The translations under genes were made by a program, and so were the position numbers. This document shows positions 12,795 through 63,945 of a stretch of DNA of 64,000 nt, in pieces. This stretch comes from Polyangiales bacterium (lineage in GTDB: Bacteria > Myxococcota_A > Polyangia > Polyangiales > Houyiibacteriaceae): contig OZ245758.1 of NCBI GenBank assembly GCA_965227405.1, positions 2,868,338 to 2,932,337 on the forward strand, written 5' to 3'. How positions within the stretch are numbered: position 1 is the first letter of the stretch; every line of letters begins with the position of its first letter. The notes below the pieces were generated by a model that was given only the letters and a program-made list of their open reading frames with translations, was not told the origin of the DNA and made no database searches.

Positions 12795-14258
12795 GTGGGT
12801 CGTCCCGTCGGTGCTGTGGTCATGGGACTTGGCGGTGCGATCGCGCTTTGTGGCGCGACCGGCATGATCTGGGATGCGGTCGCGCCCAACGCGGACCTGC
12901 CGAGCGGTGGTGCGATGACCACGCTTGCAGCGGCTGCAGTGACGGTCGGAATTGGTGCCGCGGTGTTTGCGTGGGGACGGCAACAGCAAACTCTGACGCG
13001 TCGTGAAGCGTTGCTTGCCGTTGCGTTGATCTGGATCGCCGCCGGTGTGTGCGGCGGATTGCCCTACTGGTTTGGTGCGAGCATGTCGCCCGCGGATTCG
13101 TTCTTCGAATCGGTGAGCGGGCTGACCACGACAGGCGCAACGGTCATCACCGATATCGAAGACCGCCTGTCACGTCCGCTCTTGCTCTGGCGTTCGATGA
13201 GTCAGTGGCTTGGCGGTATGGGTATCGTCGTCCTCTTCGTTGCGATCTATCCGAGCTTGGGCGCGGGTTCGAAACGTCTCTACCGCGGTGAAGCACCGGG
13301 CGCGCAGGTCGAAGGCTTTCGCCCACGCATGTCCGAAACGTCCGTGACGCTGTGGAAGATCTACGCGGCGTTCACGATCTTGGAAGTGATCATCCTGAGC
13401 TTGCTCGGCATGGATGTCTTCGAAGCCGTGTGCCATTCGATGACGACCATGAGCACCGGCGGATTCTCCACGCGCGATGCGAGTGTGGGTGGTTTCGGCG
13501 TGGCGTCGTACGAGTGGACCATCAGCGTGTTCATGCTGATCGCCAGTGTGAACTTTGGGCTCTACTACCGATTGCTGCGCGGTCGTTCGCTGCGCTCGGT
13601 CGTGCGCGATATCGAGCTGCGCGCGTTTGGGCTCATCGTGTTGGTCGCCACCGCGATCTTCGCCGTACTCAACTATCGACTTCATCCGGAGCCGGTCGAG
13701 TCGCTCCGCTATGCGCTCTTCATGACAGCGACCACGGTTTCGAGCACGGGCTACGGCACCGACGACTACACGCAATTTCCGGTGCCTGCGTTTGGAATCA
13801 TGTTGGCGGTGATGTTCATCGGTGGGTGTTCCGGTTCGACCGCCGGCGGCATCAAGGTCGAACGCATCGTCATCCTGCTCAAACAAACGTTCGCGCAGAT
13901 CAAACGGAGCTTTGAACCCACTGCAGTGCACGTTGTGCGACTCGGAAAATCAGTCGTGCCTGCGCCGGTATTGGCCGACGTCGCCAGCTTCTTCGTCGTG
14001 TACATGATCACGATCGGTGTCGGTGTGCTGCTGGTCGCATCGGTTGAGTCGATTCCGATCACCACCGCGTTTGGCGCGATGCTCACCTCGGTCTCGAACA
14101 TGGGTCCGGCACCCTTCCATGATGCCGCCGGGTTGTCCGACAACTTCGCGAGCTATGGCGGCGCGACCAAGATCTTCTTTGCTGCCGCGATGCTGCTCGG
14201 TCGTCTGGAGTTCTTCACCTTGCTCTCTCTTCTTTTGCCCGGGTTCTGGCGCCGATGA
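12795..14258 (+). CDS. trkH: potassium transporter TrkH
   Basis: 487 aa polytopic membrane protein with repeated selectivity-filter-like segments (TTTGATV, STGGFS, SSTGYGT, CSGSTAGGI) typical of TrkH/KtrB. Its stop overlaps the next start (ATGA). Confidence 0.8.
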   Translation: MGRPVGAVVMGLGGAIALCGATGMIWDAVAPNADLPSGGAMTTLAAAAVTVGIGAAVFAWGRQQQTLTRREALLAVALIWIAAGVCGGLPYWFGASMSPADSFFESVSGLTTTGATVITDIEDRLSRPLLLWRSMSQWLGGMGIVVLFVAIYPSLGAGSKRLYRGEAPGAQVEGFRPRMSETSVTLWKIYAAFTILEVIILSLLGMDVFEAVCHSMTTMSTGGFSTRDASVGGFGVASYEWTISVFMLIASVNFGLYYRLLRGRSLRSVVRDIELRAFGLIVLVATAIFAVLNYRLHPEPVESLRYALFMTATTVSSTGYGTDDYTQFPVPAFGIMLAVMFIGGCSGSTAGGIKVERIVILLKQTFAQIKRSFEPTAVHVVRLGKSVVPAPVLADVASFFVVYMITIGVGVLLVASVESIPITTAFGAMLTSVSNMGPAPFHDAAGLSDNFASYGGATKIFFAAAMLLGRLEFFTLLSLLLPGFWRR

Positions 14259-17200
14259 GCGAACACGAAGACGAGACGCCGGAGGAACCGGTGAGCGAAG
14301 ACGAGACGGTCGAATCGACAGAGTCGGTTCAGGAGGACACCGGCGCCGAGCACAGCGACGAAGACCACGGTGATCACGCCGAGGATGATCACGGACACGG
14401 ACATGGTCATGGTGACCACGACGACGAGCATGGTGGTCACGGGCACGGTGAAGGCGCGACGTTCCGTCAGGCCACGATTGTCACGCTACTCGTTGCCGCG
14501 CTTCTCTTGCTGCACCGATTTGGCGACGCCGGCGGCTCGGGGCAGTTCGATCCGACCGCGATGTTGGCGCTCGGGTTCGTCGTGTTGGCGAGCTTCACGA
14601 TCGGTCACCTGGTCGACGTCATCAAGTTCCCCCACATCACCGGCTACCTGCTTGCCGGCATGGTGTTCGGGCCTTCGATCGGCGGCCTGCTCGACGATCT
14701 GCTGGAGATCCATCTGTGGGAGCCCTTCAACGAAGGTGTTCTGAACGACACGATCATCAAGCAGCTCAGTCCGCTCGAAACGCTGGCCGTTGCGCTCATC
14801 GCAATCACAGCCGGCGGTGAGCTCAAACTCGAGACACTACGCTCAGGGCTGCGATCGATCTTTTCGATCCTCGTGGTGCAGCTGATCTTCGTGCTCGGCG
14901 CAACGGTCGGACTCTTCTACCTGATCAGCGGTTCGATCCCGATGCTCGCGCTGCCAGGACTCGGCGAGATCAGTAGCTCAGCCATCGTGCCCATTGGCTT
15001 GACGCTTGGTGCGATCGGTTTTGCGACCTCTCCTGCGGCCACGATCGCGGTCATCAACGAAACCGGCGCGAAGGGCCCGATGTCGCGCACGGTGCTGAGC
15101 ACCGTCGTCCTCAAAGACGTCTTCGTCGTCATCATGTTCGGCATCTTCTCGGCGTTGGCTGTCCAAGCCATGGGTGGCGCGACCGAGGGCAATCTCGCGA
15201 TGGAGCTGCTGGTCCACATCGGTGGCTCAATGCTCGCGGGTGTGGTGCTGGGTGTCGCGCTCGCGCTTTACCTGCGCTTCGTCAACGCCGAGTTGATGCT
15301 GTTTATCGCCGGTACGGTTTATCTCGGCTCGTATCTGTCGTCGCAACTGCACCTCGATCCGGTCCTTGTGTTCCTGGTCGCTGGATTCGTGGTGTCGAAC
15401 TTCTCACGCCACGGCGAAACGCTCATCCACACGGTCGAGCGTCTCTCGATGCCGGTGTACGTGGTGTTCTTCACGCTCGCGGGCGCGAAGTTGCACCTGC
15501 ATGAGGTCATCCACGCGTTCTGGTTCGCGCTCGCGTTGGTGCTTGCTCGTATCGTTGCGATCTACCTGGGTGTGCGACTCGGTGGCTGGATCGGTCGTGC
15601 CGACGACGCGACCAAGAAACACGGTTGGATGGGCTTCGTGTCGCAAGCAGGAGTCGCGATCACGCTAGCCAGTTTCGTGAAGCGAGACTTTGGTGCACAG
15701 GGTGAAGCGCTTTCGAACTTGTTGATCGCTGGTGTTGCACTCAACGAGATCTTGGGTCCGGTTCTGCTCAAGATCGGATTGAGTCAAGCGGGCGAAACGC
15801 GAGCTGCAAAACAACAAGCCGCCGAACTCGCCGAAGCCGAAGAGGGCGAAACCAAGATCGAGATCGAAGCGTGGCCCGAGCCGGTCGACGATGTCGCGTG
15901 GGGTCCCCATCTCGCTGGCGCACTCGGTCGGCAGATTCGCGAACTCGAACACGACCTCAAAGCGAGCGTTCGTGACGTGGCCATGGGTCCGATGGAGACC
16001 TTCCGCGAAGACGTCGAACAGTTCTTCAAGGAAGTGCGCCGTGACTTCTTGCGCATGCATCGTCGCTTGTTGGTGGCCGCGCGTACGTTGCCCGAAGACA
16101 GCGAAGAACAGATCGCAGCGCGTGCAGAGATCGCCCGTCGTTTGCGCGGCGAGCAAAAGGAGTTGGCAGAGCGCTGGCGCTCCGTCGTCCTCGCGCGTGT
16201 GGCCCAACTGGGCAAAGAACCGCCCTGGACTCCTGAGTCGATCGTCGAGGCGCTGGATGGCGCAGTGGATCGGGTCGCGACCACCGTGGAGGTACCCTGG
16301 TCGGAACGCAGTTTCACAGCTCGCGAAGACGATGGTCGTCTTCAAGCTGCACAACGTCGTTGGCTTCGGATGCGCCGAGGGACGCGCCGGCTCTTTGGCC
16401 GCGACATGCCACCGCGTGTGTTGGCGCTTCGGGATCTCGCACGCTTTCACCTCAACTTTGAAACCCCGCCTCGTCTGGAAGGAGTGGCTGCGCTCTTTGT
16501 GGCTGCCGAACAACAAGTTGCGGGTCGAACGCGGCTGATCTTCGACACGATCGTGCGTTCGTACGACGACTTGGCTGACGCGATCGCCGACGACGACCAG
16601 CTGGACCTGGTCGACGCGTTGACCATGGTGCGCGCCGACATCGAGGTTGAGCTCGACTTGGCCACCCAAGAGGTTGGGCACATCGCACACGATGGTTCGT
16701 TGCGTACCGCACGCATTCTTTCGCGCGGACTGCGTGACGTGAAGGACGAGTCGGCGATCTACGGCACCTTCGACCTCCCGGAACGAGCACGTCGGAGCAG
16801 TCGCGGTCTTCGTGAACGCGTGCAAGCGCTGGACTTGTTGACGCACACGCTGACTCGCTTGCGACGTTCGTCCGGTGGCGAGCTTGCGCTGCTTGCGATG
16901 GAGCTCGAACTCGTGGGACTCGAAGCACAGGTCAAGGAGGCACGCGCGGAGCACGTGACGCGTCTCGAAGCGGAGGTGCAGCGGCGTGCAGTGCACCAGC
17001 TCGAACGCGTGGCCGATCAAGTTCGCTCGGCGTCCGACGAGATGTTGGAGGCGTTGGAGAAGGCCGAAGACCGAGACGAACTTGCGGCGGGGCTTCACGA
17101 AATCTCGCAAGCGACGGAGAAAGTTGCCGGCGAAGCGGCACGCATCGTGCGCGAGATGCGCGACGAGCTGCTGGACGATCAGAAGTTTGCACAGCTGCTG

Positions 17201-18919
17201 GAGACCCTCGAGGAAGCCGCGCTTGGCCTGACTCCACACTACGACGTGAGTGCGGGTCGCCTGCAGCGTGGTGAGTTTAAGTTGCCGCCGGTCGTGGAGC
17301 GGGTCGACGTTCCTTTCCGCGAGATGGTGGTCGCGCGCATCGAGACGCGCATCGCACCGAGCCTGTTCAAGTCCGCACGCGACACCGCCGACAAACTTCA
17401 ACCGCTAGCTGCGTCACTGACCGAAACTGAGCACCTGATCGCGTTCAACGACGACTTGGTTCGCACCGAACTCGACAGCTTGATGGACTCGCGCATTCCC
17501 AGCGAAACGCGTGACCTGCTCCGCGAGCTTCTGAGCACGCAGCTCGAACGAAGCCAGGGATTGCTTAGCGACTACCTCGACCAGGCGAGTTCGTGGCCGC
17601 GCCAGTTGGGGCAGTCGATCGTCGACGCGATGGAGGGAGGCGTCAACGAGCTGCGGGTGGAGTTGGTCGAAGGCCAGATCACGCGCGCCAAAGTTGAAGA
17701 GATCCGTCGCGAAGCCAACCGTCGTCGACTGGCACAGCGCGCGGGTCAGCTGCCCTCGTTGCTTCGACAAGCACGACGTGAACTTGGCGACGCGATCACG
17801 TCGTTGGTTGGTGCCTCGCGCTTGGAGCTCTGGCGTAGCGCACTCGGTCTACCGGTTCCCAAGAGCGCGTTGATCCTCGAGCCGGGCGCTTTTGAAGCGG
17901 CGAGCTCAGAGGCTGAGAATCTACCCCTGGTCTATCGGCGGTTGTTTGCGGGCGACGCGATGGATGCGGGTGATGTGCTCACCGGACGCGAAGCGAGCAT
18001 TGCGCGCGTGAAGAAGGCACTCGAAGAGCGTGATGCGCGGCGCGGTGTTGCGGTGATCGGCATTGAAGGCGTGGGACGTGGCTCGGTGGCTTCGGCAGCG
18101 GTGCGTGCCGGACGTTGGCGCCGCGTTCGCAACATCACCTTTACGGGACCGGCGACGGTCGAGGATGTCGTCGAGCAACTGGGTACGATCACCGACGCGC
18201 AGCTTGTCGTCGTGGACGGGCTGCACTGGTTGTTGAGCGCACGGCCCGAGGGGTTGGCTCCGCTACGACGCTTTGTGGACGAAGTCGTCGCCGATCGGGG
18301 CAAGCGTGCGTGGTTGGTGGTCGCCGAGTCGTTGTTTTGGGAGTACGCGTCGAGCGTTGCGCCCTTGAGCGAGGCGTTTCCGACGGTGGAGCAGCTCGCA
18401 CCGCTGGGTTTGGAAGAACTGCGTGCGGCCGTGATGGCGCGACATCGGCTCAGTGGATACGGGCATTCGTTCCAACGGATCGGAACCGAGAGCCGAATTG
18501 AAGGCCTGGTGGCGCGAAGCGCGAGTCGTATCCGTCGTCCCTTCGACCAGTACTTCCACGACCTGCATCTTGCGAGCGGTGGTGTGCTTCGCGACGCGTT
18601 GCGCTTGTGGCTGGCATCGATTCAAGGCGTGCAGGATGACGAGATCGTGCACGTGGGTCGTGTACCCGAGTCTGGTTTTGCGTCGGTGAGTCGTCTGCCG
18701 GAGCAGGAGTTGTTGTGGCTCTTTCAGATTGCCCGCCAGGGTTGGATGGACGCCGTCACGTTTGCGAGCGTGTTCCGGATTGAAGTGGGTGAAGCCAGTG
18801 CGCGTTTGGCGAAACTTGCGCACTTGGGGTTGCTGGAAGAAGCCGAAGGTCGGCACCGAATCACGCCGCACCTACGCGGAACCGCGGTGCGTGTGATGCA
18901 ACAGCGAGGCTGGGTATGA
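14255..18919 (+). CDS. giant fusion protein: His-rich acidic N-terminus, CPA2-type cation:proton antiporter domain, about 1000-aa coiled-coil region, degenerate AAA_16/STAND-like C-terminal module
   Basis: 1554 aa. Residues 1-70 are acidic with an HGHGHGHGDHDDEHGGHGHG run. Residues about 75-510 are a membrane domain with the CPA2/KefB-like GYLLAGMVFGPS motif. The remainder is Arg/Glu-rich helical sequence ending in RGVAVIGIEGVGRGS (Walker A with K to R) and LVVVDGLHWLL (the DDLHW-like motif of AAA_16). ATGA-coupled to trkH upstream and the MscS gene downstream. Confidence 0.6.
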   Translation: MSEHEDETPEEPVSEDETVESTESVQEDTGAEHSDEDHGDHAEDDHGHGHGHGDHDDEHGGHGHGEGATFRQATIVTLLVAALLLLHRFGDAGGSGQFDPTAMLALGFVVLASFTIGHLVDVIKFPHITGYLLAGMVFGPSIGGLLDDLLEIHLWEPFNEGVLNDTIIKQLSPLETLAVALIAITAGGELKLETLRSGLRSIFSILVVQLIFVLGATVGLFYLISGSIPMLALPGLGEISSSAIVPIGLTLGAIGFATSPAATIAVINETGAKGPMSRTVLSTVVLKDVFVVIMFGIFSALAVQAMGGATEGNLAMELLVHIGGSMLAGVVLGVALALYLRFVNAELMLFIAGTVYLGSYLSSQLHLDPVLVFLVAGFVVSNFSRHGETLIHTVERLSMPVYVVFFTLAGAKLHLHEVIHAFWFALALVLARIVAIYLGVRLGGWIGRADDATKKHGWMGFVSQAGVAITLASFVKRDFGAQGEALSNLLIAGVALNEILGPVLLKIGLSQAGETRAAKQQAAELAEAEEGETKIEIEAWPEPVDDVAWGPHLAGALGRQIRELEHDLKASVRDVAMGPMETFREDVEQFFKEVRRDFLRMHRRLLVAARTLPEDSEEQIAARAEIARRLRGEQKELAERWRSVVLARVAQLGKEPPWTPESIVEALDGAVDRVATTVEVPWSERSFTAREDDGRLQAAQRRWLRMRRGTRRLFGRDMPPRVLALRDLARFHLNFETPPRLEGVAALFVAAEQQVAGRTRLIFDTIVRSYDDLADAIADDDQLDLVDALTMVRADIEVELDLATQEVGHIAHDGSLRTARILSRGLRDVKDESAIYGTFDLPERARRSSRGLRERVQALDLLTHTLTRLRRSSGGELALLAMELELVGLEAQVKEARAEHVTRLEAEVQRRAVHQLERVADQVRSASDEMLEALEKAEDRDELAAGLHEISQATEKVAGEAARIVREMRDELLDDQKFAQLLETLEEAALGLTPHYDVSAGRLQRGEFKLPPVVERVDVPFREMVVARIETRIAPSLFKSARDTADKLQPLAASLTETEHLIAFNDDLVRTELDSLMDSRIPSETRDLLRELLSTQLERSQGLLSDYLDQASSWPRQLGQSIVDAMEGGVNELRVELVEGQITRAKVEEIRREANRRRLAQRAGQLPSLLRQARRELGDAITSLVGASRLELWRSALGLPVPKSALILEPGAFEAASSEAENLPLVYRRLFAGDAMDAGDVLTGREASIARVKKALEERDARRGVAVIGIEGVGRGSVASAAVRAGRWRRVRNITFTGPATVEDVVEQLGTITDAQLVVVDGLHWLLSARPEGLAPLRRFVDEVVADRGKRAWLVVAESLFWEYASSVAPLSEAFPTVEQLAPLGLEELRAAVMARHRLSGYGHSFQRIGTESRIEGLVARSASRIRRPFDQYFHDLHLASGGVLRDALRLWLASIQGVQDDEIVHVGRVPESGFASVSRLPEQELLWLFQIARQGWMDAVTFASVFRIEVGEASARLAKLAHLGLLEEAEGRHRITPHLRGTAVRVMQQRGWV

Positions 18920-23568: not shown

Positions 23569-23757
23569 ATGGGCGACTTTGCCCTGCTCTTGATCCTGGA
23601 TGACATTGTCGTCGACCCAGCGCGCTTTGAGACCTGGCGAAGCGCGTGGCGCAAAGCACGCCAATACGAAGACCCGGGCGCCATCGAGTTTTTCGATCGC
23701 TACTACGAGTGCGTAGAGACCGGCTTCGCCTACGCGATCAACAAGTTCACGCGTTAG
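23569..23757 (+). CDS. small hypothetical protein (62 aa)
   Basis: High GC3 codon bias consistent with coding. Convergent with the SDR gene and overlapping its 3' end. No domain recognised. Confidence 0.3.
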   Translation: MGDFALLLILDDIVVDPARFETWRSAWRKARQYEDPGAIEFFDRYYECVETGFAYAINKFTR

Positions 23758-24440
23758 CTGCGGCCGTAGACCGGGATCAGCGCCCCGCGCGTCGTCTTGT
23801 TCGCAGGAGACGCGAGAAAGACCATGGTCGCCGCGACTTCTTCCACCTTGGGCCACGCGTCGAAGTCTGCATCTGGCATCGCACTTCGGTTCGTGGGGGT
23901 GTCCATGATCGATGGCGCAATCGCATTCACGAACACACCGCGGTCGTGCAGCTCTTCGTCGAGTGAAAGCGTCAGTCCCACCACAGCCGACTTGGTTGCC
24001 GCATAGGTCGCGACGTTCGCGCAGGGCACGAGCGTGGGTTTCGCCGCGACGTTCACGATCCGACCTTCGTCCATTCGCTTCGCGGCTTCGCGACAACACA
24101 ACCAACACGTACGCAGGTTCAACGCGACCATCTTGTCGAACGCTTCAACGTCGGTTTCGGCGAGTGGACCCCACACAAAACCACCTGCGATATGCAGCGA
24201 CGCCCAAAGCGGCCCCGGCACAGCATCGTAAAACGCGATGGTCTGCGCTTCGTCGGTCAGATCGACGGAAGGTGTTACCCGCAACATGGCGTGGTCGATG
24301 CCCGCCAAGCGTTTCTGGTCGCGCTCGCCTACAGCAGGAACATGAACCTCCGCGCCTTCATCGAGTAGCGCGCGTACGACGGCCATTCCGAGAAAGCCGC
24401 CACCGCCGGTGACCACGACGCGACGTCCGCCAAAGCTCAT
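23754..24440 (-). CDS. SDR family NAD(P)-dependent oxidoreductase
   Basis: 228 aa with the Rossmann motif VVVTGGGGFLGMAV and the YxxxK-type catalytic region (ATYAATKSAV). Confidence 0.75.
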   Translation of the reverse strand: MSFGGRRVVVTGGGGFLGMAVVRALLDEGAEVHVPAVGERDQKRLAGIDHAMLRVTPSVDLTDEAQTIAFYDAVPGPLWASLHIAGGFVWGPLAETDVEAFDKMVALNLRTCWLCCREAAKRMDEGRIVNVAAKPTLVPCANVATYAATKSAVVGLTLSLDEELHDRGVFVNAIAPSIMDTPTNRSAMPDADFDAWPKVEEVAATMVFLASPANKTTRGALIPVYGRS

Positions 24441-24868
24441 GCTTCGGCTCGTTCTTTCAACCGCTTGTTGAGAACTTCGTAACCCTTTTCGACCTGCGGT
24501 CCGAGGAAGCGCCAGGGAAGCGAAAACAAGGGACCGGTAAACTTCTCTCCGTGCACGAGTCGCGTTCGGTTGTCGTCGATCGCTTCGAGACGAAAGAAGT
24601 GACTGCCACCGCCCAAAGGCTTTTGCAGCGAGTTGCGTGGTCCTTCCCAGCGAAGCTCGGTTCCGTCCGCACGTACAATGCGCGCCGCGATCGGTGCCTC
24701 GAGCGGGCCCAACTTGATCTTGAAGTCGATGTTGCCGCCGGGCCGGAGTTCACCACGCGGTTGCAAGATCACCGGGTTCCATTCGCTGTATGAATCGAGG
24801 TCGGTGAGGATTTCCCAAACGCGTTCGACCGGTGCGTCGATCGCCAGACTTGTGAGCACGAGCGGCAT
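24437..24868 (-). CDS. SRPBCC (polyketide cyclase/START-like) domain protein
   Basis: 143 aa. The N-terminal MPLVLTSLAIDAPVERVWEILTDLDSYSEWNP matches the SRPBCC/Bet v1-like signature. ATGA-type coupling with the downstream SDR gene. Confidence 0.6.
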   Translation of the reverse strand: MPLVLTSLAIDAPVERVWEILTDLDSYSEWNPVILQPRGELRPGGNIDFKIKLGPLEAPIAARIVRADGTELRWEGPRNSLQKPLGGGSHFFRLEAIDDNRTRLVHGEKFTGPLFSLPWRFLGPQVEKGYEVLNKRLKERAEA

Positions 24869-24922
24869 GCCGCGGATCTAGCAGACCCGCCTGGTCGCGA
24901 CTAGCGAACGCCGAGCGAACTC

Positions 24923-25339
24923 TTAGGGAAGGAACCGAGCGCGTTCTTCAGGCGTGGGAACTCGACACGTATCGAGCTTGCCCCAAATCTTGTAACGCAT
25001 CTTCGCGATCATCCGGTACACGACGTCGGCGATAAACGAGGGCACGAATCGAAACCAGCTCAGCACTCGCCAGCCGGTCTGCAGGTGCAGCGACAGCATG
25101 AACACGGCACGTGAGCGCCAGTAGACGTTTTCTTTGTCGCCGTCTTTCTCCACGTAAATGATCGAGTCGAGTCCTTCGGGGATCTCGGGGTGACGCGCGA
25201 TGACTTCCGCGGCGGTTTCTCCTTGAAGCGGTGCGAACTGCAGACGACCTTCCGGATCGTTTTCGAGAAGCCACTGGACGGACTTGTCACACAGTCCGCA
25301 GAGACCATCGAACAACACCAACCGGGGAACCTCGCTCAC
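24923..25339 (-). CDS. DCC1-like thiol-disulfide oxidoreductase family protein (DUF393)
   Basis: 138 aa. The N-terminal LVLFDGLCGLCDKSVQWLLENDPEGRLQFAPLQ is the characteristic DCC-family CxxC motif. Confidence 0.65.
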   Translation of the reverse strand: MSEVPRLVLFDGLCGLCDKSVQWLLENDPEGRLQFAPLQGETAAEVIARHPEIPEGLDSIIYVEKDGDKENVYWRSRAVFMLSLHLQTGWRVLSWFRFVPSFIADVVYRMIAKMRYKIWGKLDTCRVPTPEERARFLP

Positions 25340-25369
25340 ATCGTGATCATAGGGCTCAAGCGCGCGGCT

Positions 25370-27280
25370 TCAACCCTCGGAAGTCATCATGCGAAACGGT
25401 GTGGTGTCGATGGGTCCGGTCGCCTCGCCATCGTCGTTGGGCACAGCGAGCGCTTCCATCAAGCCGTTGAGGGTCTGCTCCTGAGGCTGCAACGCGAGTG
25501 CGCGGGTCAGCACCATGCGCGCTTCTTCGCGATTGCCGGTATCGGCGTAGTAGAGCGCGCGTTGGTAGAGGCGCCATACGAGCTGTCGAACCGTTTCGGG
25601 GTCGAGCGGTTTCTCCAGCATGCGCTCGATGCGCGCCCAACTTTTGCGTTCGACGTCGCGACCTTCGGTGCGGTCCACACGCGTGGCACCGTCGGGAACG
25701 ACGCGGTGATACAGACCACCCGGAACCAGCGTGTTTTGGATGTCACGCGACACGCGTAGATCGAGTTCGACGTACACCGGTCTTCGCGATGCGAGAGTTT
25801 GCAGATCGCCGACGTCGATTTCGCCATCAAGCATGTAGCGGTTGAGGAGTGGTCGAAGCATCTCGTCGCGCTCCACCAAAGCGTCGGCCATGCCCGGATA
25901 TGTGAGGAAGGGAACGGGCACAAAGGAGATGTCGGGCCGCAGATGTTCTTCGGCTTCGCCTCCCCAGTAGCGAAAAGCAGTTTGGGGAGCGTACGCGATC
26001 ACGATCGAACCGGTGGGCAAGTGACGCCGCAGTTCTTCATCGAACGTGTCGGGTGAGCGAAGTGCGCTGAACGATGCGTCGGCTCCGTTGTCGGTGATCT
26101 GAAAAGCACATGCACCGGCGATGACTGTGGCAACGGCGAGCGTGAGACGCGTTCGCTCGCCGAGAACGACGATGACCATGCCGCCAAACCCGACCGCGGC
26201 GATGCTCAATGCTGCGATGGCTGGCATCAAATACCCGAGCGCATCAGGGTTTGAGCGTACAAACCCCAACCAAGCACGGGCAGCGATGAACACCGTCGCA
26301 ATGAGCAACCAAAGGATGCCGAGACGTCTGCTGCTGCGTTGTCGGATCAACGCGTAGAAGCCCGCGAGTGCGATGAAGAGAACAGCGACGCTCAAGCTTT
26401 CGCCGAGTTGGATCGCGACGTCGGCAAAGCGCTCCCCCAAAGGTTGCGGAACACCTTCGCCTTGGTTCTTCTGAAACGCCTCTGCACTGACGACCCACCA
26501 CATGCGTCCGAGGTCGTTGGGGTCGCCCAAGCTCAGGTAGGCTCGTCCCGCGCGCAAGGGAAGGTAGATGTAGGTGGCGAGTCCGAGCAGGCCCGCGCCC
26601 AATCCGATACTGAGTGGCCGCCAGCCGCGTTCGCTGACTGCACGTCCCAGTGTCGCAGCGCACGCAGGTAAGATCAGTAGTGCTAAGAAGTGGTGGTTGG
26701 CGAGTGCAAGTGCAAAGGCGAACGTGGCGACGTAGAGTTTGCGCGAGTCGCCTTCGGCTTCGTAGGCGACGATCCGTTCGAGAGCGAAACAGGTGAGCGC
26801 AGCTTGAAGTGCATAGACTTCGGGGCGAACCGCTTGGAGCCACCATCCGAAGCTTCCTGCGCTTAGCCAACACACCCCGATCGCGAGGATGCTGGAATCG
26901 AGCGGCCTTGTTCCGAGACCGCGAAAGGTGCGTTCGGCGGCGAAGTGCACGCAGCCGATGGCGAAGGCAGCGAGAAGTGCGCTGGCGATGGCAGTGCGAA
27001 AAGCAATCGATCCGATGGGGAGCAGCCACGTGAACAGTCCGAGCACCACACCGTTGAGGGGGTGTCCGGGTGGGTGCGAGATGCCGAAGTCGGATGCTTG
27101 GGCGACGAACTCGCCGCCATCGAGCCAGTACCCGTAACCAGATGCCGTGGCGAGATAGCCGGCGAGCGGAGCACCTACGGAGAGCGCGACGGGCCACGCG
27201 GATCGGACGGTACTGCTCAAGGCCGAAGCGATGGTGTCCTTGTGGAGGTGTGGGGTCAAACCATTGCATGCTCTGGCCAT
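25370..27280 (-). CDS. DUF2723/TMEM260-like polytopic membrane protein (glycosyltransferase-39-like fold) with C-terminal TPR-like region
   Basis: 636 aa. The N-terminal GYGYWLDGGEFVAQASDFGISHPPGHPLNG motif is typical of DUF2723/PMT-like transferases. About 11 TM helices are followed by a soluble helical/TPR-like tail. The start matches the CAT at 27278-27280. Confidence 0.55.
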   Translation of the reverse strand: MARACNGLTPHLHKDTIASALSSTVRSAWPVALSVGAPLAGYLATASGYGYWLDGGEFVAQASDFGISHPPGHPLNGVVLGLFTWLLPIGSIAFRTAIASALLAAFAIGCVHFAAERTFRGLGTRPLDSSILAIGVCWLSAGSFGWWLQAVRPEVYALQAALTCFALERIVAYEAEGDSRKLYVATFAFALALANHHFLALLILPACAATLGRAVSERGWRPLSIGLGAGLLGLATYIYLPLRAGRAYLSLGDPNDLGRMWWVVSAEAFQKNQGEGVPQPLGERFADVAIQLGESLSVAVLFIALAGFYALIRQRSSRRLGILWLLIATVFIAARAWLGFVRSNPDALGYLMPAIAALSIAAVGFGGMVIVVLGERTRLTLAVATVIAGACAFQITDNGADASFSALRSPDTFDEELRRHLPTGSIVIAYAPQTAFRYWGGEAEEHLRPDISFVPVPFLTYPGMADALVERDEMLRPLLNRYMLDGEIDVGDLQTLASRRPVYVELDLRVSRDIQNTLVPGGLYHRVVPDGATRVDRTEGRDVERKSWARIERMLEKPLDPETVRQLVWRLYQRALYYADTGNREEARMVLTRALALQPQEQTLNGLMEALAVPNDDGEATGPIDTTPFRMMTSEG

Positions 27281-28823
27281 GTCGAAGGTGACCGACCAGA
27301 TCGATCAGGCGTCCGAGAAGCAGCGGGAGCTACCGAAAGAGGCGATGGTGGTGACTTCGCACCCGCGTGCCGTAGAGGCGGCGACCAAGGTGCTCGAGGC
27401 AGGAGGTCATGCCGTTGATGCCGCGATTTGTGCAGCTGCAGTGCTGGGCGTCGTGGACCCCATGAGCACAGGTGTGGGTGGGGACTGTTTTGCGATGGTG
27501 TGGGACGCGCACGCGTTGTACGGGTTCAACGGATCGGGGCGTGCGCCGGCGAAGGCATCGTTGGAGGATCTGCAGGCACGAGGTCTGGACGCGGTGCCCG
27601 AGCGCGGTGTGTTGCCGATCACAGTTCCGGGAGCGGTGGACGCGTGGTGGCAGTTGCATAAGCGCTTCGGTCGCGCGTCATGGGATTCGTTGTTGGAGCC
27701 GGCGGTCGTTGCAGCGCGGGACGGCTTCGCAGTCACGCCTGTGGTGGGACGTGACTGGGGTCGCAGCGCGTACGCGTACCAACCGGTTCCGCAGGTGGGT
27801 CAGGTGTATACGCAGCCCGAGTTGGCGCAGTCGCTTTCGAAGCTACAGCGCGGTCGAGATGTGTTCTACAGCGGCGAGTTGGCCGATGCGATCGCAGCAC
27901 GTGTTGCGGAGGACGATGGTTGGCTGACGAAGTCGGATCTTGAAGCGCATCAGGGCGAGTGGGTGGAACCGCTTGAAGGGGTGTATCGCGGACATCCCGT
28001 GTACGAGTTGCCGCCCAACGGGCAGGGCGTGGTGGTGTTGCAAGCGTTGGCAATGCTCGAAGAGCTTTCGCTGCGCGACATGGATGTGGTGGAGCAGACC
28101 CATGTGCAGATCGAAGCGTTGAAGTTGGCGTTTGCGGATGCGCGAGTGCATGTGGGCGATCCTTCGCGAAGCGATGTGTCGCGTTTGCTCGACTACGCGT
28201 ACATCGAAGAGCGCGTGAGCCTGATCGGCGACCAGGCTTGCGCCTCGGCGGTGGGTGGACTGCCGAATGGCGACACCGTGTACGTCGCTGTGGTGGATGC
28301 GCAGGGCAACGCGTGTTCGTTGATCAACAGCGTGTACATGCACTTTGGATCTGGCGTTGTGGTTGACGGAATGTGCTTACAAAACAGAGGTGTTCTGTTT
28401 CGGAGCGATCCAGCGCATCCAAGTGCGTTGGCACCGGGCCGAAGGCCGTACCACACGATCATTCCGGCGATGGCGTTTCGGGGCTTGGTGCCTTGGTTGG
28501 TGTTTGGGGTCGTCGGTGGTTACCAGCAGCCGCAAGCGCAGGTGCAGCTACTGCATCGTTGGATCGATCGTGGAGAAGCCTTGCAAGCTGCGGTGGATGC
28601 ACCGCGCTTCCGGTGGATCGAGGGGAACAAGGTTCAACTCGAAGAGGGTACCGATCCAACGTTGATCGAAGGGTTGCGAAACCGAGGCCACAACGTGGTG
28701 GAGGGAGCTGCGTTCGGAGGCTTTGGTGGAGCTCAAGCGATCGAGATCAGCGAGTCACTCACTGGTGCGACTGACCCACGCAAAGACGGAACCATCGGGG
28801 TGTTAACTTTGGGGACAGGTTAA
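27279..28823 (+). CDS. ggt: gamma-glutamyltransferase
   Basis: Start placed at MSKVTDQ. GGT family motifs are present (TSHPRAVEAATKVLEAGGHAVDAAI, and the catalytic-Thr region GDTVYVAVVDAQGNACSLINSVYMHFGSGVV). The stop codon lies inside the left inverted repeat of the downstream repeat element. Confidence 0.85.
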   Translation: MSKVTDQIDQASEKQRELPKEAMVVTSHPRAVEAATKVLEAGGHAVDAAICAAAVLGVVDPMSTGVGGDCFAMVWDAHALYGFNGSGRAPAKASLEDLQARGLDAVPERGVLPITVPGAVDAWWQLHKRFGRASWDSLLEPAVVAARDGFAVTPVVGRDWGRSAYAYQPVPQVGQVYTQPELAQSLSKLQRGRDVFYSGELADAIAARVAEDDGWLTKSDLEAHQGEWVEPLEGVYRGHPVYELPPNGQGVVVLQALAMLEELSLRDMDVVEQTHVQIEALKLAFADARVHVGDPSRSDVSRLLDYAYIEERVSLIGDQACASAVGGLPNGDTVYVAVVDAQGNACSLINSVYMHFGSGVVVDGMCLQNRGVLFRSDPAHPSALAPGRRPYHTIIPAMAFRGLVPWLVFGVVGGYQQPQAQVQLLHRWIDRGEALQAAVDAPRFRWIEGNKVQLEEGTDPTLIEGLRNRGHNVVEGAAFGGFGGAQAIEISESLTGATDPRKDGTIGVLTLGTG

Positions 28824-29065
28824 CTATTTAACCGACCCTCGATCTCTAAGTCATTGAAACCACGAGTTTCGTGTGTGCTTGGACATGCTTTGCAGGCGCC
28901 TCAGAGAGCGTTTCGCAATGCTCCTACTTCAGATCACACCTGACTCGTGGATGTGAGCCGAGTTTCTTCGGCGCAGGGCGCCAGATCTGATTCGCTGAAT
29001 TGAATGATCTTGGTCAGTTGGAGATCGAGGGTCGGTTAAATAGTTAACCTGTCCCCAGAGTTAAC
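28802..29065. mobile_element. MITE-like element, 264 bp, with 45-bp terminal inverted repeats (GGGGACAGG-hairpin family, copy A)
   Basis: Left arm gttaactttggggacaggttaactatttaaccgaccctcgatctc and right arm gagatcgagggtcggttaaatagttaacctgtccccagagttaac match at 44 of 45 positions as reverse complements. The interior is lower-GC non-coding DNA. Both convergent flanking genes have stop codons in or against the arms. Coordinates +/- 2. Confidence 0.7.
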
Positions 29066-29926
29066 CTACTCCAAGAACGGGGTGCAGTACTCGTCGCTGA
29101 TGAGTTCGGTGATCGCTGTGGCCATGTCCAGGGTTCCGGCTCGCACGTCGCGGATGCTCCAGGCTCGGCCACCGGTTTGGTTGGGCAGGGTGTCCATTCC
29201 CAAGTACGGCTCGTGAAAACCTTGGCCCACGTTGGGCGACATCCCGGCTCCACAAAACTCGCCTGCGCCCGGCGCCGAAAAACTTCCCACACGCAATTCG
29301 TTGCTCACCAACACGCCTGCAACTTCGGAGTACATCCGCTCGATCGGGATTCCACTCAGCGACGCTCCTCGCTCCGCAAACGTATCGTCGGTTGCGTGGA
29401 TGATCAGCTTGGTCGCGCTCGGTCGCCACGGACACGCGGTTGCTGCGGCCCACAACGCATCCAGACTGTTCTCGGGACAATCACCGTTGGAATCCGAACC
29501 GCCACCTGCAGGCTGTCGGTTGGTCGAGGTGAAATCGCGCCAGTTCATGAACTCGGCCTGCAATGACTCCACGGTCGTGAAGTTCGCACACCCATTCACG
29601 GTCACGACGTCGTCGACAAACACAACCAAGCCAAACTGGGTATCTGAAGTCAGCGCACGTGCTGCATTCCAGACACTGGTGATCCCGTTGGTGATCTGAT
29701 CCAACTCGTCTTCCATCGACGTGCTCGTATCGATCACGAACACCACATCCAAAGGATCGTCGCACTCGCTATCGGCATCGATGTTCGAGTCGGTCCCTGG
29801 TACATCCGGAACACCCAACGTGTCGCTCGCAGGCACATCGGCGACACCGCCGTCGCGCGTGGGTCGGTCGTCGTCACCACACGCACCAAGAACAACAACG
29901 AGAGCAAGCGAGCATCTTCCAAGCAT
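29066..29926 (-). CDS. secreted VWA domain lipoprotein
   Basis: 286 aa with a lipobox (VVVLGACGDDD) and the MIDAS motif VFVIDTSTSM (DxSxS). Its stop abuts the right inverted repeat of repeat copy A. Confidence 0.65.
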   Translation of the reverse strand: MLGRCSLALVVVLGACGDDDRPTRDGGVADVPASDTLGVPDVPGTDSNIDADSECDDPLDVVFVIDTSTSMEDELDQITNGITSVWNAARALTSDTQFGLVVFVDDVVTVNGCANFTTVESLQAEFMNWRDFTSTNRQPAGGGSDSNGDCPENSLDALWAAATACPWRPSATKLIIHATDDTFAERGASLSGIPIERMYSEVAGVLVSNELRVGSFSAPGAGEFCGAGMSPNVGQGFHEPYLGMDTLPNQTGGRAWSIRDVRAGTLDMATAITELISDEYCTPFLE

Positions 29927-44071: not shown

Positions 44072-44668
44072 ATGGGGGATGACTACGAGCGCGACTACAT
44101 GGACGGCGATGGCGCCATGTATCGAGAGAAGCACGTCTCCAAGTTGTTCTCGGCGTTGATGTTGTTGCCGGCGTTGGCTGCTGCTGCGGGTGGAATTGCC
44201 GCCGCGGTGCAGGGGGATTTTGCGGGAGCCGGCGCACTGGCTGTGGGTGCTTTGGGAGCCGGAACCGCCGGAGTGTTCTTCTCGGTGATGCGGACGATCG
44301 TGACTCCGAGCGAACTACGAGTGCAGTACGGAACGTTGGGACCGACCGTGGAACTCTCGTCGATTCGTTCGGTGGAAGTCGTGCGACTCAACGCCATGAC
44401 GCGACTGGCGATTGGCCCGAAGATTTGGCCCGAAGGTTGGCGTTATGTGTTTCCAGGAGCCACGCATGGAGTGCGTGTCGTGTACCAGGACGGGAAGCGA
44501 ACGAAGACGATCACCATTGCGGCCGATGATCCTGAAGCCTTAGCCGCGGCGATCCACCAGTCGAGCGCGACCGTGGGCATGCAAGTGCGCGTGGAAACCT
44601 CGACCGAGCAAGAAGTAGAAGAACAAGCGGGAGACTCAACCGACGAAGAATCCGAAACGCACCCATAG
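44072..44668 (+). CDS. hypothetical membrane protein
   Basis: Two N-terminal TM helices (Ala/Gly-rich), then a roughly 100-aa soluble domain. Its stop lies 13 nt before repeat copy B. Confidence 0.35.
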   Translation: MGDDYERDYMDGDGAMYREKHVSKLFSALMLLPALAAAAGGIAAAVQGDFAGAGALAVGALGAGTAGVFFSVMRTIVTPSELRVQYGTLGPTVELSSIRSVEVVRLNAMTRLAIGPKIWPEGWRYVFPGATHGVRVVYQDGKRTKTITIAADDPEALAAAIHQSSATVGMQVRVETSTEQEVEEQAGDSTDEESETHP

Positions 44669-44681
44669 GGGTGGGGATTTT

Positions 44682-44786
44682 GGGGACAGGGTCAGATCTG
44701 ACCTGAACTATGTGGCCATACATTCGCGTTTTAGGAAAAAGCGGACTGTATTTCGGGGAGTCCGGTTCAGATCTGACCCTGTCCCC
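44682..44786. mobile_element. MITE-like/REP-like element, about 105 bp, with 20-bp perfect terminal inverted repeats GGGGACAGGGTCAGATCTGA (family copy B)
   Basis: The left arm is ggggacagggtcagatctgacc and the right arm is tcagatctgaccctgtcccc. Each arm contains the palindrome tcagatctga. It sits between convergent genes. Coordinates +/- 2. Confidence 0.6.
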
Positions 44787-44809
44787 AATCTGAACTTTAC
44801 CCGGTTGGG

Positions 44810-45547
44810 TTATTCGGGCGATGTCCACGCTGTGTCGAAGAGTTGTTCGCTGAGCGGAGACCAGGTTGTCCACTTGTGGATCCCGGGTCTCGCGACCACG
44901 CGATCACTGGGTAGGAAGCCGCCCAACAAGGCGTGGTCGGGGGCACCGGGATCCTCGGTTCCGTAGGTCAGAAAGATCGGCGTTCCGCTTCGGTTGCGCG
45001 CCTGCAACTGCTCGCGAATCCAGACCCACACTTTCCGGGTTTGGCGTGGCCGGCTGTCTTCCATGGTCGCCAGATCCCCCGACTCCCACTCGCCCAGGTT
45101 TTCGGCTTCGCGAATCTCGGCCAACACTTCCGGCTCGCCCAAGTAAGGCGCAAACAACATCACACCGTCGATATCCTCGGGATGTGCCTGCGCATAACTC
45201 AACGCCCCAAAGCCACCCATCGACACACCGACGATCCAAACCTGGCGGTAGCCCATCGCTTGCGCGCGTGAGAACACATCGGCTTCCAACGCGTCGACCA
45301 ACGTAAACCCGCGATAGAAACCGAAGTGTGATCCCACGGCGATCGAATCCCAGCCGTGTTGCTTGGCGCGCTCGACCAAACCCCAACGCTCGAAGCTTCC
45401 AGCGTTGTCCCCAAGTCCATGCAGAAACACGATGAGTCCACGCGCTCGATGCGAACCCTGGTCCGCGTAATCAAGCACACGCATGGGACGTGTTGGCGAT
45501 GTGAGCATGCAGCTCTGAAGCAGGAGCGCGATCCAAACCAAGCGCAT
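44810..45547 (-). CDS. alpha/beta hydrolase (esterase family)
   Basis: Start placed at MRLVWIALLLQSCM (signal peptide). It has VFLHGLGDNAGSF and the nucleophile elbow GVSMGG. The track's N-terminal extension would overlap the Fpg/Nei gene. Confidence 0.6.
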   Translation of the reverse strand: MRLVWIALLLQSCMLTSPTRPMRVLDYADQGSHRARGLIVFLHGLGDNAGSFERWGLVERAKQHGWDSIAVGSHFGFYRGFTLVDALEADVFSRAQAMGYRQVWIVGVSMGGFGALSYAQAHPEDIDGVMLFAPYLGEPEVLAEIREAENLGEWESGDLATMEDSRPRQTRKVWVWIREQLQARNRSGTPIFLTYGTEDPGAPDHALLGGFLPSDRVVARPGIHKWTTWSPLSEQLFDTAWTSPE

Positions 45548-45555
45548 GCGGTGCT

Positions 45556-46323
45556 CTAGCACGAAGCTTGCTGGCAACTCGCGCAAAAATAGGTCGAACG
45601 ACCTTCTTGCTTCTTCATCGCAACCGGCTCTCCGCACGTACGACATAGCTCAGTCGATCGTCCGTACACCCAAAGACGTCCCTCGTAGCGCTTGCGCGTG
45701 GTGCGCATCGATGTCCCCAAGTTCCGCTTCATCAAGCGTCGTGCGTCAGCAAAGAGCGCATTCAGCGCGTCATCGGAAACCTCCGCCACCGGAGCAAAGG
45801 GATCGAGTTTGGCCAAGAACAGTAGTTCGCTTTTGTACACGTTGCCGATTCCACCCACGATGTCTTGGCGCATCAACGCAACCCCAATGGGCAACGCATC
45901 GACGCCACGCATCCGGCGCAACGCTTCGTCGGCATCAAATTCTGTTGCAAGAAGATCGGGGCCAAGTCGCGCCAAGAGTGGCGACGCACTTTCGCGTTTC
46001 AACAGTTCCGCGATGGCCAGGTCTACGCCCAACACCATGCTCTTGCCGAGGGCCATCACCACCGACGAACGACCAATCGGCGACGTCCAGCGACGAATCA
46101 CCTTCCACCGTCCACGCATCCGCAAGTGCGAGTGCAAGATCATCCCATCGTCAAAGTCCATCAGCAGATGTTTGCCGCGCGCACGTACACCCACGACGGT
46201 TCGCCCGACACGATCGACGTTGAGTAGCTTCGACGCACTCGCCTCAAAACGCGACACCTCGCGACCGGCCATGGCTTGGTGCAGTCGCTGCGCAGCTCGA
46301 AAGATCGTGTCTCCCTCAGGCAC
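45556..46323 (-). CDS. Fpg/Nei family DNA glycosylase
   Basis: N-terminus (V)PEGDTIFRAAQRL, with GTG start assumed. H2TH region. C-terminal zinc finger CRTCGEPVAMKKQEGRSTYFCASCQQ. Confidence 0.7.
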   Translation of the reverse strand: MPEGDTIFRAAQRLHQAMAGREVSRFEASASKLLNVDRVGRTVVGVRARGKHLLMDFDDGMILHSHLRMRGRWKVIRRWTSPIGRSSVVMALGKSMVLGVDLAIAELLKRESASPLLARLGPDLLATEFDADEALRRMRGVDALPIGVALMRQDIVGGIGNVYKSELLFLAKLDPFAPVAEVSDDALNALFADARRLMKRNLGTSMRTTRKRYEGRLWVYGRSTELCRTCGEPVAMKKQEGRSTYFCASCQQASC

Positions 46324-61744: not shown

Positions 61745-62242
61745 GTGGGTAAGCCGAAGAAGCAGAAGTACGACGAGATGTTGTTCTTCTCGATCGCGAA
61801 GCCTGACGTCGATGCGGTGTTGAGGAAGGTCTTGGACGAACAGCGATACCTACTCGGTGTCGACGTTGTGGAAGAAAACGAGGTTTCGGTCCGGCATGTT
61901 CATTGGAGACGCGACGCACCGCCGATCAAGATCGATGAAGTGACCGGCAAGCTCGCGAAGCTCCGTATCGAGACAGCGCTCGAAGATCTGCAAGAGGTCG
62001 TCGATGCAAATCCCTACGCGTGGTTCACGCAATCTCCGCAGGAGGTGCGCGCACTGCGGCAGAGACTCAAGCAAGCATCCACTGTGGTGCGTTTTCGCCA
62101 CCCCGACGTGGGTATGGGTTGGCGTGGACCGTTCCGGGTGAGTCGTGCGCTTGCGGGCAAGCTTCGCTTCCAGTCAGGCGGAGTGTTGAAGCTCGCCGAC
62201 TACAGCTTCGAAACCCCCGGCGGTAAAGTCATCGGCCGCTAG
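61745..62242 (+). CDS. hypothetical protein
   Basis: 165-aa soluble ORF, last gene before repeat copy C. No domain recognised. Confidence 0.35.
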   Translation: MGKPKKQKYDEMLFFSIAKPDVDAVLRKVLDEQRYLLGVDVVEENEVSVRHVHWRRDAPPIKIDEVTGKLAKLRIETALEDLQEVVDANPYAWFTQSPQEVRALRQRLKQASTVVRFRHPDVGMGWRGPFRVSRALAGKLRFQSGGVLKLADYSFETPGGKVIGR

Positions 62243-63413
62243 GTGTAAATTATGGGGACAGGTTCATTAATGAACCGACCCATGATCGCTAAGCATGCGA
62301 AATTGCTGAAACTGGTGACGGCTCACGTGTGCGTCACGCAAAAGCCACGTGTTCGTGATGAGCCGTTTGGGGGAGTCGCTCGTAGAACCGAGCAGGCGAC
62401 GGCGCGCGCTATCTCCAATTCTCCATCCCCAATTGCCGCGCGCGTCGTCGCCCTCCTTCGAGAGCTACGAGGCTTTGGCTTCGAGCAGCGCTTCGACCGG
62501 GGCAAACCGTTGGGTTAGCTGCGCCATGACGTCGGTCACATCCACGCTCATGCGTTCGCTGAAAAGCGTCAGATCGAGCACCAAGTTGCTGACCGCCATT
62601 TCGATCAGCGACGGCTCGTCGGTCACCACCGCACGGTTGTCGTTGGTTTCCTGCGCGCCACCGACCAACAACTCATTTCGATCGACCAAGAGGATGATCT
62701 TGTGTTCCCAATGTGCGGCGAGCGAGTCGGGGTCGATGTCGTAGGTGAGTGTGCGTCCCACGTTAGGTAACGGTGTAAACGAGAAGAGAGTTACGTCCAC
62801 GCCGCGATCGACCGCATCTTGTAGTGCTTTCTCAAAGTGACGAGCTTCGCGTCCCCAGACCGACGCCACGACAGTGGACTTCGCTTTCTCGATCTTCTGA
62901 ACTGCCTGCTCGAGCATCGCTTCGTACCCTTCCACCGTCCACGTCACCGAAGTGTCGGGCTTGTCGGCGAGACGATCGATGCCTCCACGAAGTGACTCGA
63001 GGCTGCGCGTGAAACGTGTTTCGAGAAGCGCAAAGAGTTTCTCAGGCGCGAGCGGAACGTAGCGTGCTGGCTTTTCTTGAACTGCGTTGATCAGTCCCAA
63101 GCTTTGGAGCCGCTTGAGTACGTTGTAGATGGCCGAGCGCGGCACACCCGATTGCGTCGCCAGTTCATAGCCCGTTGCCGGGTTGGTCTTGAGGAGCGCG
63201 ACGTACGCTCGCGCATCGGTCGCTGTGAAGCCGAGCTGCTTCATCGCGGCGACAACCTTCTCCTCAACCTCCTGGGCCATACGATCGGCATACTGGACTC
63301 TGAAGCGTCACGCAAACATGAGTTACGCCGGAGGCAAGCCAGGTCAGTGTGGTTTCAAGCACTTAGCGATCACGGGTCGGTTCATTCCTGAACCTGTCCC
63401 CGAAATTTACACG
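62243..63413. mobile_element. 1.17-kb element bounded by about 47-bp inverted repeats of the GGGGACAGG-hairpin family (copy C), carrying a TrmB-family regulator gene
   Basis: The left arm is gtgtaaattatggggacaggttcattaatgaaccgacccatgatcgc. The reverse complement of the right arm is gtgtaaatttcggggacaggttcaggaatgaaccgacccgtgatcgc. The arms align with those of copy A (GGGGACAGGTT, palindrome, ACCGACCC, then GATC). The interior has visibly lower GC than the flanks. Confidence 0.6.
62465..63280 (-). CDS. TrmB-family transcriptional regulator
   Basis: 271 aa. The N-terminal winged helix (LGFTATDARAYVALLKTNPATGYELATQSGVPRSAIYNVLKRLQSLGLI) is the TrmB signature, and a C-terminal effector-binding-like domain follows. 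Confidence 0.7.
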   Translation of the reverse strand: MAQEVEEKVVAAMKQLGFTATDARAYVALLKTNPATGYELATQSGVPRSAIYNVLKRLQSLGLINAVQEKPARYVPLAPEKLFALLETRFTRSLESLRGGIDRLADKPDTSVTWTVEGYEAMLEQAVQKIEKAKSTVVASVWGREARHFEKALQDAVDRGVDVTLFSFTPLPNVGRTLTYDIDPDSLAAHWEHKIILLVDRNELLVGGAQETNDNRAVVTDEPSLIEMAVSNLVLDLTLFSERMSVDVTDVMAQLTQRFAPVEALLEAKAS

Positions 63414-63945
63414 ATGCGATCTTCCTCAATGCGTCGGTGCAACCTCGTGTTCGGAACGCGTGTTGTGCGCGTTCTGGAAGTCGCCACAGCGCCGCTGCGT
63501 AGCGTTCGTCGTCCTCGGTCGTCCACGGTTCGCCGACGAACTGCGCGAACGCTTGTGATGCACGCACCACGTCCTGGAGTTGTCGTCCAAGGTCGGCCTC
63601 GTCGCGATGACGCGTGGTGTGTCCGATGTGCTCGCTTGGATCCAAGTCGGCGTTGAGTCGCTTTGCTTCGTCTTCGCTCAGCTCGAGTTCAGCCGTTCCG
63701 TGTCGTACCTGCCAACGCCACACGTTTGCCAATTGACCCCAGGCATCGTCACCACCGTGGAGTTGTCGGATCCAAACCAAACACGCGTCAAGTGCGCTCG
63801 CTTGCCGAAACTGACGCGCGCGCTGGATGACGAAGGGCTCGATCGCACCCGCCAGGTCCGGATACACCGCAAACCAAGACTCGTGGTCCACGTCGTCACG
63901 GTGTTCTGCTGCGCGGCGAAACGCGCGCTTGTACTCGTCACACAC
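63382..63945 (-). CDS. hypothetical protein
   Basis: 187-aa ORF. Its last six codons and stop (RGQVQE*) are encoded by the right inverted repeat of copy C. Confidence 0.3.
   Translation of the reverse strand: MCDEYKRAFRRAAEHRDDVDHESWFAVYPDLAGAIEPFVIQRARQFRQASALDACLVWIRQLHGGDDAWGQLANVWRWQVRHGTAELELSEDEAKRLNADLDPSEHIGHTTRHRDEADLGRQLQDVVRASQAFAQFVGEPWTTEDDERYAAALWRLPERAQHAFRTRGCTDALRKIASCKFRGQVQE

Follow-up and report, generated by a model that had tools for sequence, protein, structure and literature searches.

An inverted repeat filling the gap between two convergent genes in a myxobacterium is probably one copy of a lineage-restricted, non-autonomous mobile family

What is the long inverted repeat that separates two convergent genes in the chromosome of a Polyangiales bacterium, how far does it reach, and how did it come to lie there? 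The DNA analyzed here is a stretch of 64 kb (the window) of ordinary chromosome with genes for ClpB, Trk potassium uptake, isocitrate/isopropylmalate dehydrogenase, glutathione synthetase, gamma-glutamyltranspeptidase and similar functions; a tRNA search of the window found no tRNA gene. An earlier note on this DNA had described a 105-bp hairpin with perfect 20-bp arms, 13 nt after one stop codon and 23 nt before the other, and both the structure and its site are real. The left arm, GGGGACAGGGTCAGATCTGA, occupies 44682-44701; its exact reverse complement follows 65 nt further on, at 44767-44786 (the two arms read ggggacagggtcagatctga and tcagatctgaccctgtcccc, respectively). The TAG stop of the plus-strand gene (44666-44668) is 13 nt upstream of the left arm, and the stop of the minus-strand gene, TTA in the forward reading (44810-44812), is 23 nt downstream of the right arm. 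The size of the element had been underestimated: the 105-bp hairpin is present, but the arms are about 60–80 nt long rather than 20 nt, and homology covers 44661-44810. The perfect inverted repeat is 22 nt (TT...AA; 44680-44701 against 44767-44788), and in an inverted-repeat search of the window the arms reach 30 nt at 90% complementarity, 49 nt apart.

The limits of this element, called copy B hereafter, were drawn by comparison with contigs from public assemblies, which belong to the same species (L117 and L136; 97–98% nucleotide identity) or to two related species (L118–L135; about 76–86%). Over 40 nt, the segment 44774-44812 has 87.5% identity with an arm that stands at an unrelated gene in L124, and ACCCGGTTGGGTTA in the right flank of copy B is matched at 14 of 14 positions in L136. 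The left outer segment, ACCCATAGGGGTG, is the inverted counterpart of the right outer segment, and the two pair with each other in the fold. On this homology at unrelated loci and the pairing of the outer segments, copy B spans about 44661-44810, from stop codon to stop codon, has a length of ~150 bp and occupies the entire intergenic spacer (Table 1). Its left limit, ACCCA, falls within the last codons of the left gene, the last two of which lie with the TAG inside the outer left segment, and its right limit, TGGGT, overlaps the first base of the right gene's stop codon. The true start of the right gene is probably downstream of 45646, because its homologues are about 247 aa long. The inner tail of the right arm, CCGGACTCCCCGAAA, is common to a solo arm in L118. 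As single-stranded DNA the copy B region folds with -34.8 kcal/mol (z = -7.1 against shuffles); for the RNA, z is -8.4 on one strand and -9.0 on the other.

Table 1. Positions, in window coordinates, of copy B, its relatives and the adjoining genes.
Feature	Position	Strand	Remark
Copy B, full extent	44661..44810	.	homology to other family copies; short orthologous spacers; outer segments pair
Copy B left arm	44680..44709	+	first 22 nt pair perfectly with right arm
Copy B left head GGGGACAGG	44682-44690	+	
Copy B left hairpin GGTCAGATCTGACC	44689-44702	+	
Copy B internal motif GAACTATGTGGCCATAC	44705..44721	+	17 nt, 94% to the B-like doublet of L125 (related species)
Copy B right arm	44759..44788	-	34 nt at 88% to the L118 arm
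Copy B right head GGGGACAGG	44778-44786	-	
Left convergent gene	44072..44668	+	198 aa, weak DUF3093 match
Right convergent gene, alpha/beta hydrolase	44810..45646	-	C-terminus intact, length as in relatives
Copy A	28790..29068	.	48-nt arms plus outer segments
Copy A arms	28802-28849 and 29018-29065	inverted	96% complementary
Copy C left arm	62243..62293	+	51-nt arm, directly after TAG stop of 165-aa gene (61745-62242)
Copy C right arm	63362..63412	-	51-nt arm
TrmB-family regulator gene	62465..63280	-	enclosed by the two C arms; promoter and terminator conserved in relatives without arms

Copy B is one of three such structures in the window. The 9-mer core GGGGACAGG occurs six times against 0.37 expected, a number reached in 0 of 100 shuffles, and its one-mismatch variants are at chance level. 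As the earlier note had held, the core is common to copies A, B and C: its six occurrences form three inverted pairs, which are also the three longest inverted repeats of the window. When a profile of seven arms was run over the window with nhmmer, further degenerate arms were not found. The six arms in 64 kb, and some five other distinct arms that ~92 kb of related contigs contain, all stand at gene 3′-ends, eight of the ten aligned arms following directly on the TAA or TAG of the incoming gene. In the remaining two (A-left and C-right), the gene reads through to a stop codon inside the arm. The gamma-glutamyltranspeptidase gene takes its last ~10 codons and its TAA stop (28821-28823) from the left arm of copy A, and the C-terminus of the encoded protein departs from its relatives exactly where the arm begins, ending in DPRKDGTIGVLTLGTG in the window and the sister strain and in DPRKDGRAKLVNS or similar in relatives. 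The right end of copy A abuts the stop codon of a VWA-domain gene (29066-29068). At copy C, the minus-strand ORF 63382-63945 runs into the right arm and stops within the hairpin. Read from the incoming gene, the copy C arm puts a stop codon into each of the three frames within about 50 nt (62243-62293; so do the arms generally), with a TAA in GTGTAAA, a TAA or TGA in the hairpin loop and a TAA in CGCTAAG, so that insertion into the 3′-ends of ORFs would be tolerable.

The two arms of copy C are 1.07 kb apart, and the 975 bp between them (62353-63327) hold the TrmB gene with its own promoter and terminator hairpin. In L115 and L118 the same block is armless and has other neighbours. By this comparison the TrmB gene is a resident chromosomal gene, and copy C is not a compact element. 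Comparison of window 62243-63412 with L115 (4435-5425), L117 and L118 (5437-9800) shows that the window species has the larger block around it (Metallophos-DUF3616-...-TrmB) in inverted orientation with respect to two related species, one breakpoint of the inversion being the arm beside the 165-aa gene; against L115, only the 975 bp between the arms can be aligned. Copy C was also considered as an invertible segment and rejected as such: a sister-strain contig crosses the right arm and continues unbroken into TrmB, oriented as in the window, which gives no sign of two orientations. Downstream of TrmB, at 62395-62455, lies a long GC-rich hairpin without a T-run, GGCGACGGCGCGCGC ... GCGCGCGTCGTCGCC, which is conserved in related species (86% over 79 nt). 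It is probably the native terminator of this gene and suggests, as a pointer, that U-less terminators are used in the host lineage.

The architecture of the family was read from an alignment of ten arms from five loci. Reading inward, each arm of about 60–80 nt begins with an outer segment (ACCCA-N3-GGGT...(T)TT) and the head GGGGACAGG, which is invariant in seven of seven aligned arms. Next come a stem-loop (GGT(T)CA-N4-TGA(A)CC), whose base is closed by GGG(G)...CCC(C), then a C-rich stretch (GACCC or GGACTCCCC), which forms pairs with the G-run in the head, and finally an inner tail. This tail is GTGATCGCTAAG in the arms of A and C, and CGAAA(A)CGTAT in those of B-right, L118 and L125. The same two-tier hairpin, of -6 to -9 kcal/mol, forms in six of the seven arms. 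Its stem GGT(T)CA...TGA(A)CC is the same in B, C and the relatives, and the 4-nt centre alone varies (GATC in B, TTAA in C-left, GGAA in C-right and CTAA in L118). A compensatory pair (C-G to A-T) is found in copy A only, and a truly different hairpin at the same place (TCCGG-N7-CCGGA) only in the L125 copy. With the stem identical in B and C, one compensatory pair in A and another hairpin in L125, the hairpin is weakly supported by formal covariation: pairing is seen in 91.7% of cells and two-sided changes at two pairs, a level reached by 37 of 500 shuffles. The idea that copy B has a different inner palindrome therefore applies to its central four nucleotides, the stem being that of C. Likewise, a kept core beside a drifting stem describes the family in so far as an invariant head adjoins a variable palindrome that still pairs, but it is mostly the loop that drifts. 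A reading of the palindromes as restriction sites (BglII, HpaI, AseI) was dismissed, since nearly any 6-bp palindrome is the site of some enzyme.

Comparison of orthologous sites shows where the arms come and go. At the site of copy B, L124 (86% aa) and L125–128 (78% aa) have 26–28 nt between the same two stop codons, as against 141 nt in the window. The reverse is seen 22–35 nt past the stop of a 232-aa gene, where L124 and L125 have an arm and the window has unrelated, armless sequence. Between strains, L136 is 97% identical to window 23753-28827 and has, next to the adh_short stop, an A-type arm that equals A-left at 29 of 29 nt; no arm is present there in the window. The 165-aa gene has a C-type arm directly behind its stop codon in the window; in L118 the arm at this 3′-end is a solo one, lies 120 nt downstream and has an inner tail of the B-right type. 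Copy B therefore belongs to a set of sequences with insertion polymorphism between species and strains, and by these alignments the element is mobile, or at least gained and lost. Contigs from four samples end in or beside arms (L117, L124, L125–128 and both ends of L136), as expected for a multi-copy sequence in short-read assemblies. The junctions of copy B are less straightforward: the empty sites of 26–28 nt cannot be aligned with the site filled from stop to stop, and a simple clean insertion does not account for them. At the adh_short locus of the window (23752-23756), a TAG in a putative plus-strand frame overlaps the TAA of the minus-strand gene (CGTTAGCTG), leaving no bare spacer, and the L136 arm is inserted exactly at this junction of overlapping stops. 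A 12-nt tandem duplication, TTCACTTTGGGG repeated once, is seen in L125 (8171-8194) at the outer edge of its arm and is missing from the orthologous arm of L124; slippage could have produced it, or it could be a footprint left by an active element.

The family was also looked for outside these genomes. A scan of a genome collection with GGGGACAGG-N10-AACCGAC returned at least 113 chance matches in unrelated taxa, and none of those listed had the palindrome or a partner arm. One chance match was all that a scan of viral contigs gave, and there was no match among 72,556 plasmids. With a 19-base-equivalent pattern, a scan of JGI metagenomes gave a single match, in a coding region and without the palindrome, which is a chance match; the family is absent or very rare in the JGI metagenomes. 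Nothing in the window matched Rfam 15 at the gathering threshold, the sub-threshold matches being generic miRNA hairpins (21 bits against 100). Literature searches retrieved a PCR primer only for the core sequence, and no work on MITEs or REPs of Myxococcota. The hosts of the family are marine Polyangia-like Myxococcota and close relatives; proteins related to the TrmB-like protein of the window carry the annotation Myxococcota/Polyangiaceae.

We therefore regard copy B, with a probability of roughly 0.7, as a member of a lineage-restricted, non-coding, non-autonomous family of palindromic mobile repeats that is REPIN/BIME- or MITE-like and is moved in trans. The family is new, of a well-known sort. 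REPINs consist of two inverted palindromic units, each with an adjacent conserved head, and a spacer, and fold into one hairpin of about 90–150 nt; REPINs and REP-BIMEs are present in tens to hundreds of copies per genome, almost all extragenic, and REPINs and BIMEs are moved on single-stranded DNA by RAYT (Y1/HUH) enzymes in Pseudomonas and enterobacteria, the cognate RAYT gene being flanked by REPs of its own group (PMC3337134). Similarly, copy B folds whole into a hairpin of ~90–150 nt, and a conserved non-palindromic head stands beside each palindrome of the family. The likeness extends to the strictly extragenic position, at gene ends, of the arms compared, the existence of singlets, the lack of target duplication, and the vertical distribution restricted to one lineage with sets of copies that differ between close relatives. 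In the classical REP group the palindrome is near-identical in hundreds of copies (PMC3337134), whereas here its centre varies (B, C-left, C-right, L118 and A), L125 has another hairpin, and the arms, in which both an outer and an inner segment are conserved, exceed typical REPs in length at 60–80 nt. Unlike those of a REPIN, the left and right ends of this family are not equivalent, and its copies overlap stop codons and rewrite C-termini.

With MITEs such as Correia/NEMIS of Neisseria, ERIC/IRU and RPEs, the family shares a length of 100–250 bp, the absence of coding capacity and the terminal inverted repeats, as well as an intergenic position with co-transcription from neighbours, the ability to alter gene ends and presence/absence polymorphism between strains. 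It differs from MITEs of the DDE type (e.g., IS630/Correia-like) in lacking a TA or fixed-length target duplication of 2–9 bp, and from MITEs in general in that it has no known parent insertion sequence and no match in plasmid records or Rfam. Judged by these likenesses, it would fall outside the classical REPs in the strict sense, given its variable palindrome centre, and outside the TIMEs (see below), given the lack of a 5-bp duplication, and seems to work most like REPIN/BIME.

How would such an element move? Among the 37 window ORFs scanned against Pfam, no transposase or recombinase domain was found, nor was a RAYT or other mobilizing enzyme, and an enzyme encoded elsewhere in the genome would copy or move the element in trans. 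No consistent target-site duplication was found under any boundary up to 32 nt outside the core, and none at copy B; 19% of random site pairs give a match of 5 nt or more. What looks like a duplication at A (GTTAAC) and at C (AAATT) is the inverted repeat itself, extended as a palindrome, and the L136 copy, which is at another locus, has GTTAAC again with an unchanged offset. The likeliest mechanism, put forward tentatively, is that an HUH/Y1-type enzyme (RAYT- or IS200/IS605-like) recognizes the hairpin folded in single-stranded DNA during replication; it is suggested by the lack of duplication, the conserved non-palindromic head beside the hairpin and the design in which a doublet forms a hairpin. 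The 165-aa gene that stands beside arms in two species was tried as such a RAYT-like HUH enzyme and rejected: it has no Pfam or PDB match, and the HVH and the candidate Tyr are not conserved in its orthologue. Lying between convergent genes, copy B would be transcribed at the end of both mRNAs and give each a very stable 3′ stem-loop, which may protect or terminate the transcripts, and such an effect would explain why copies persist at gene ends only. To provide both convergent transcripts with such a stem-loop is a plausible secondary role. A terminator search found no terminator-like site at copy B on either strand and no U-run, the tails being AATCTGAAC and AAAATCCCC.

Tn3-family transposons end in repeats of 38–40 bp that read GGGG...ACGCTAAG, and the arms of A and C likewise start with GGGG and end with CTAAG exactly 40 nt later (GGGG...C(G/T)CTAAG). 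The L118 arm contains CGAAAACGTA, presumably as in the gamma-delta repeat. These features, and the mere length of the terminal inverted repeats (30–51 nt), speak for a cut-and-paste MITE from a DDE transposon, especially a Tn3-family derivative (TIME), with C as a composite that captured the TrmB gene. The repeats of TIMEs are ~40 bp long and can enclose foreign genes (TIME-COMPs), and both Tn3 and TIMEs produce 5-bp AT-rich direct repeats (PMC4133298). The family resembles these elements in its repeats of ~40 nt that start with GGGG and, as in TIME-COMPs, in the unrelated gene bracketed by the repeat pair of copy C. However, no direct repeat flanks copy B, the candidates of A and C being parts of the palindromic repeat, and homology between copies goes on for 20–30 nt outside GGGG, which places GGGG inside the arm and not at its tip. 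The absence of duplication and the internal GGGG argue against Tn3-type or any other DDE cut-and-paste origin, and on these two tests, of target duplication and of tip position, the Tn3/TIME origin was rejected. In addition, no transposase was found among the window ORFs scanned, the family is confined to a chromosomal myxobacterial lineage and is missing from the plasmids scanned, and the supposedly captured TrmB block has its own conserved promoter and terminator and is armless in relatives. Such an origin is thus unlikely.

Another possibility is that the mobile unit is a single arm, placed after a stop codon with the same orientation as the gene, that pairs arise where genes converge (A and B) or where two genes face a third (C), and that gene conversion between neighbouring inverted arms keeps the partners alike. 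It would account for the solo arm in L118, for the distance between the C arms around a resident gene, for the different hairpins of the two arms of the L125 doublet, and for the placement of eight of ten arms directly after the TAA or TAG of the incoming gene, with two read through to an internal stop. Against this stands the organization of the pairs themselves. Copy B has an internal motif and its left/right organization in common with the L125 element, as would a doublet inherited whole, and the partners within A, B and C are far more alike than arms of other loci, down to pair-specific outer bases. The orientation of a doublet relative to its gene is set by geometry and is thus uninformative. 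A single arm as the unit of movement is, on balance, rather improbable.

That the structure is a host-evolved bidirectional terminator or an RNA-stability or regulatory hairpin of convergent pairs, and not mobile DNA, is very improbable: it does lie between convergent genes at three of three window loci, makes a very stable RNA hairpin on both strands and has a counterpart in native 3′ hairpins of this genome without U-tracts, such as the conserved one downstream of TrmB, but it is missing from the orthologous spacer in two related species and variable between 97%-identical strains, has no U-run or terminator-like call, overwrites gene C-termini, and shares with copies at unrelated genes a long identity that a terminator would not need.

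A mobile REPIN/BIME- or MITE-like family would add a repeat to the poorly studied marine Polyangia-like Myxococcota. It accounts for the breaks at gene ends in short-read assemblies from these organisms, and it offers a handle for strain typing and for tracing the mobilizing enzyme. Its copies rewrite protein C-termini and sit at synteny breakpoints, and would in this way contribute to the evolution of gene ends and genome order in the lineage. The association with stop codons is the least ordinary feature of the family. One could conceive of the arms as a 'gene-end cassette' for which stop codons are the target or the place where selection retains it, which we consider improbable; if true, either an enzyme that places the element precisely at stops or a domesticated 3′-end signal for convergent genes would be a targeting mode or host function undescribed for REP or MITE, and only true targeting would make a new mechanism class.

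Two further observations concern other parts of the window and its counterparts. An ORF of 1554 aa (14255-18919) matches a Na+/H+ exchanger domain over residues 110-503, the other ~1000 residues having no Pfam match. After the gamma-glutamyltranspeptidase gene, which in the window is followed by copy A, L132 (11555-11737) and L135 (10286-10328), which represent two related species, carry a different repeat, GTAACTCAGGGGAGTAGGG...CGCCCACTTTTTTATGTGAA, together with AATTTCCAAATTTCC-type repeats; contigs of at least three samples all end at this repeat, which may represent a second repeat family at the site of copy A.
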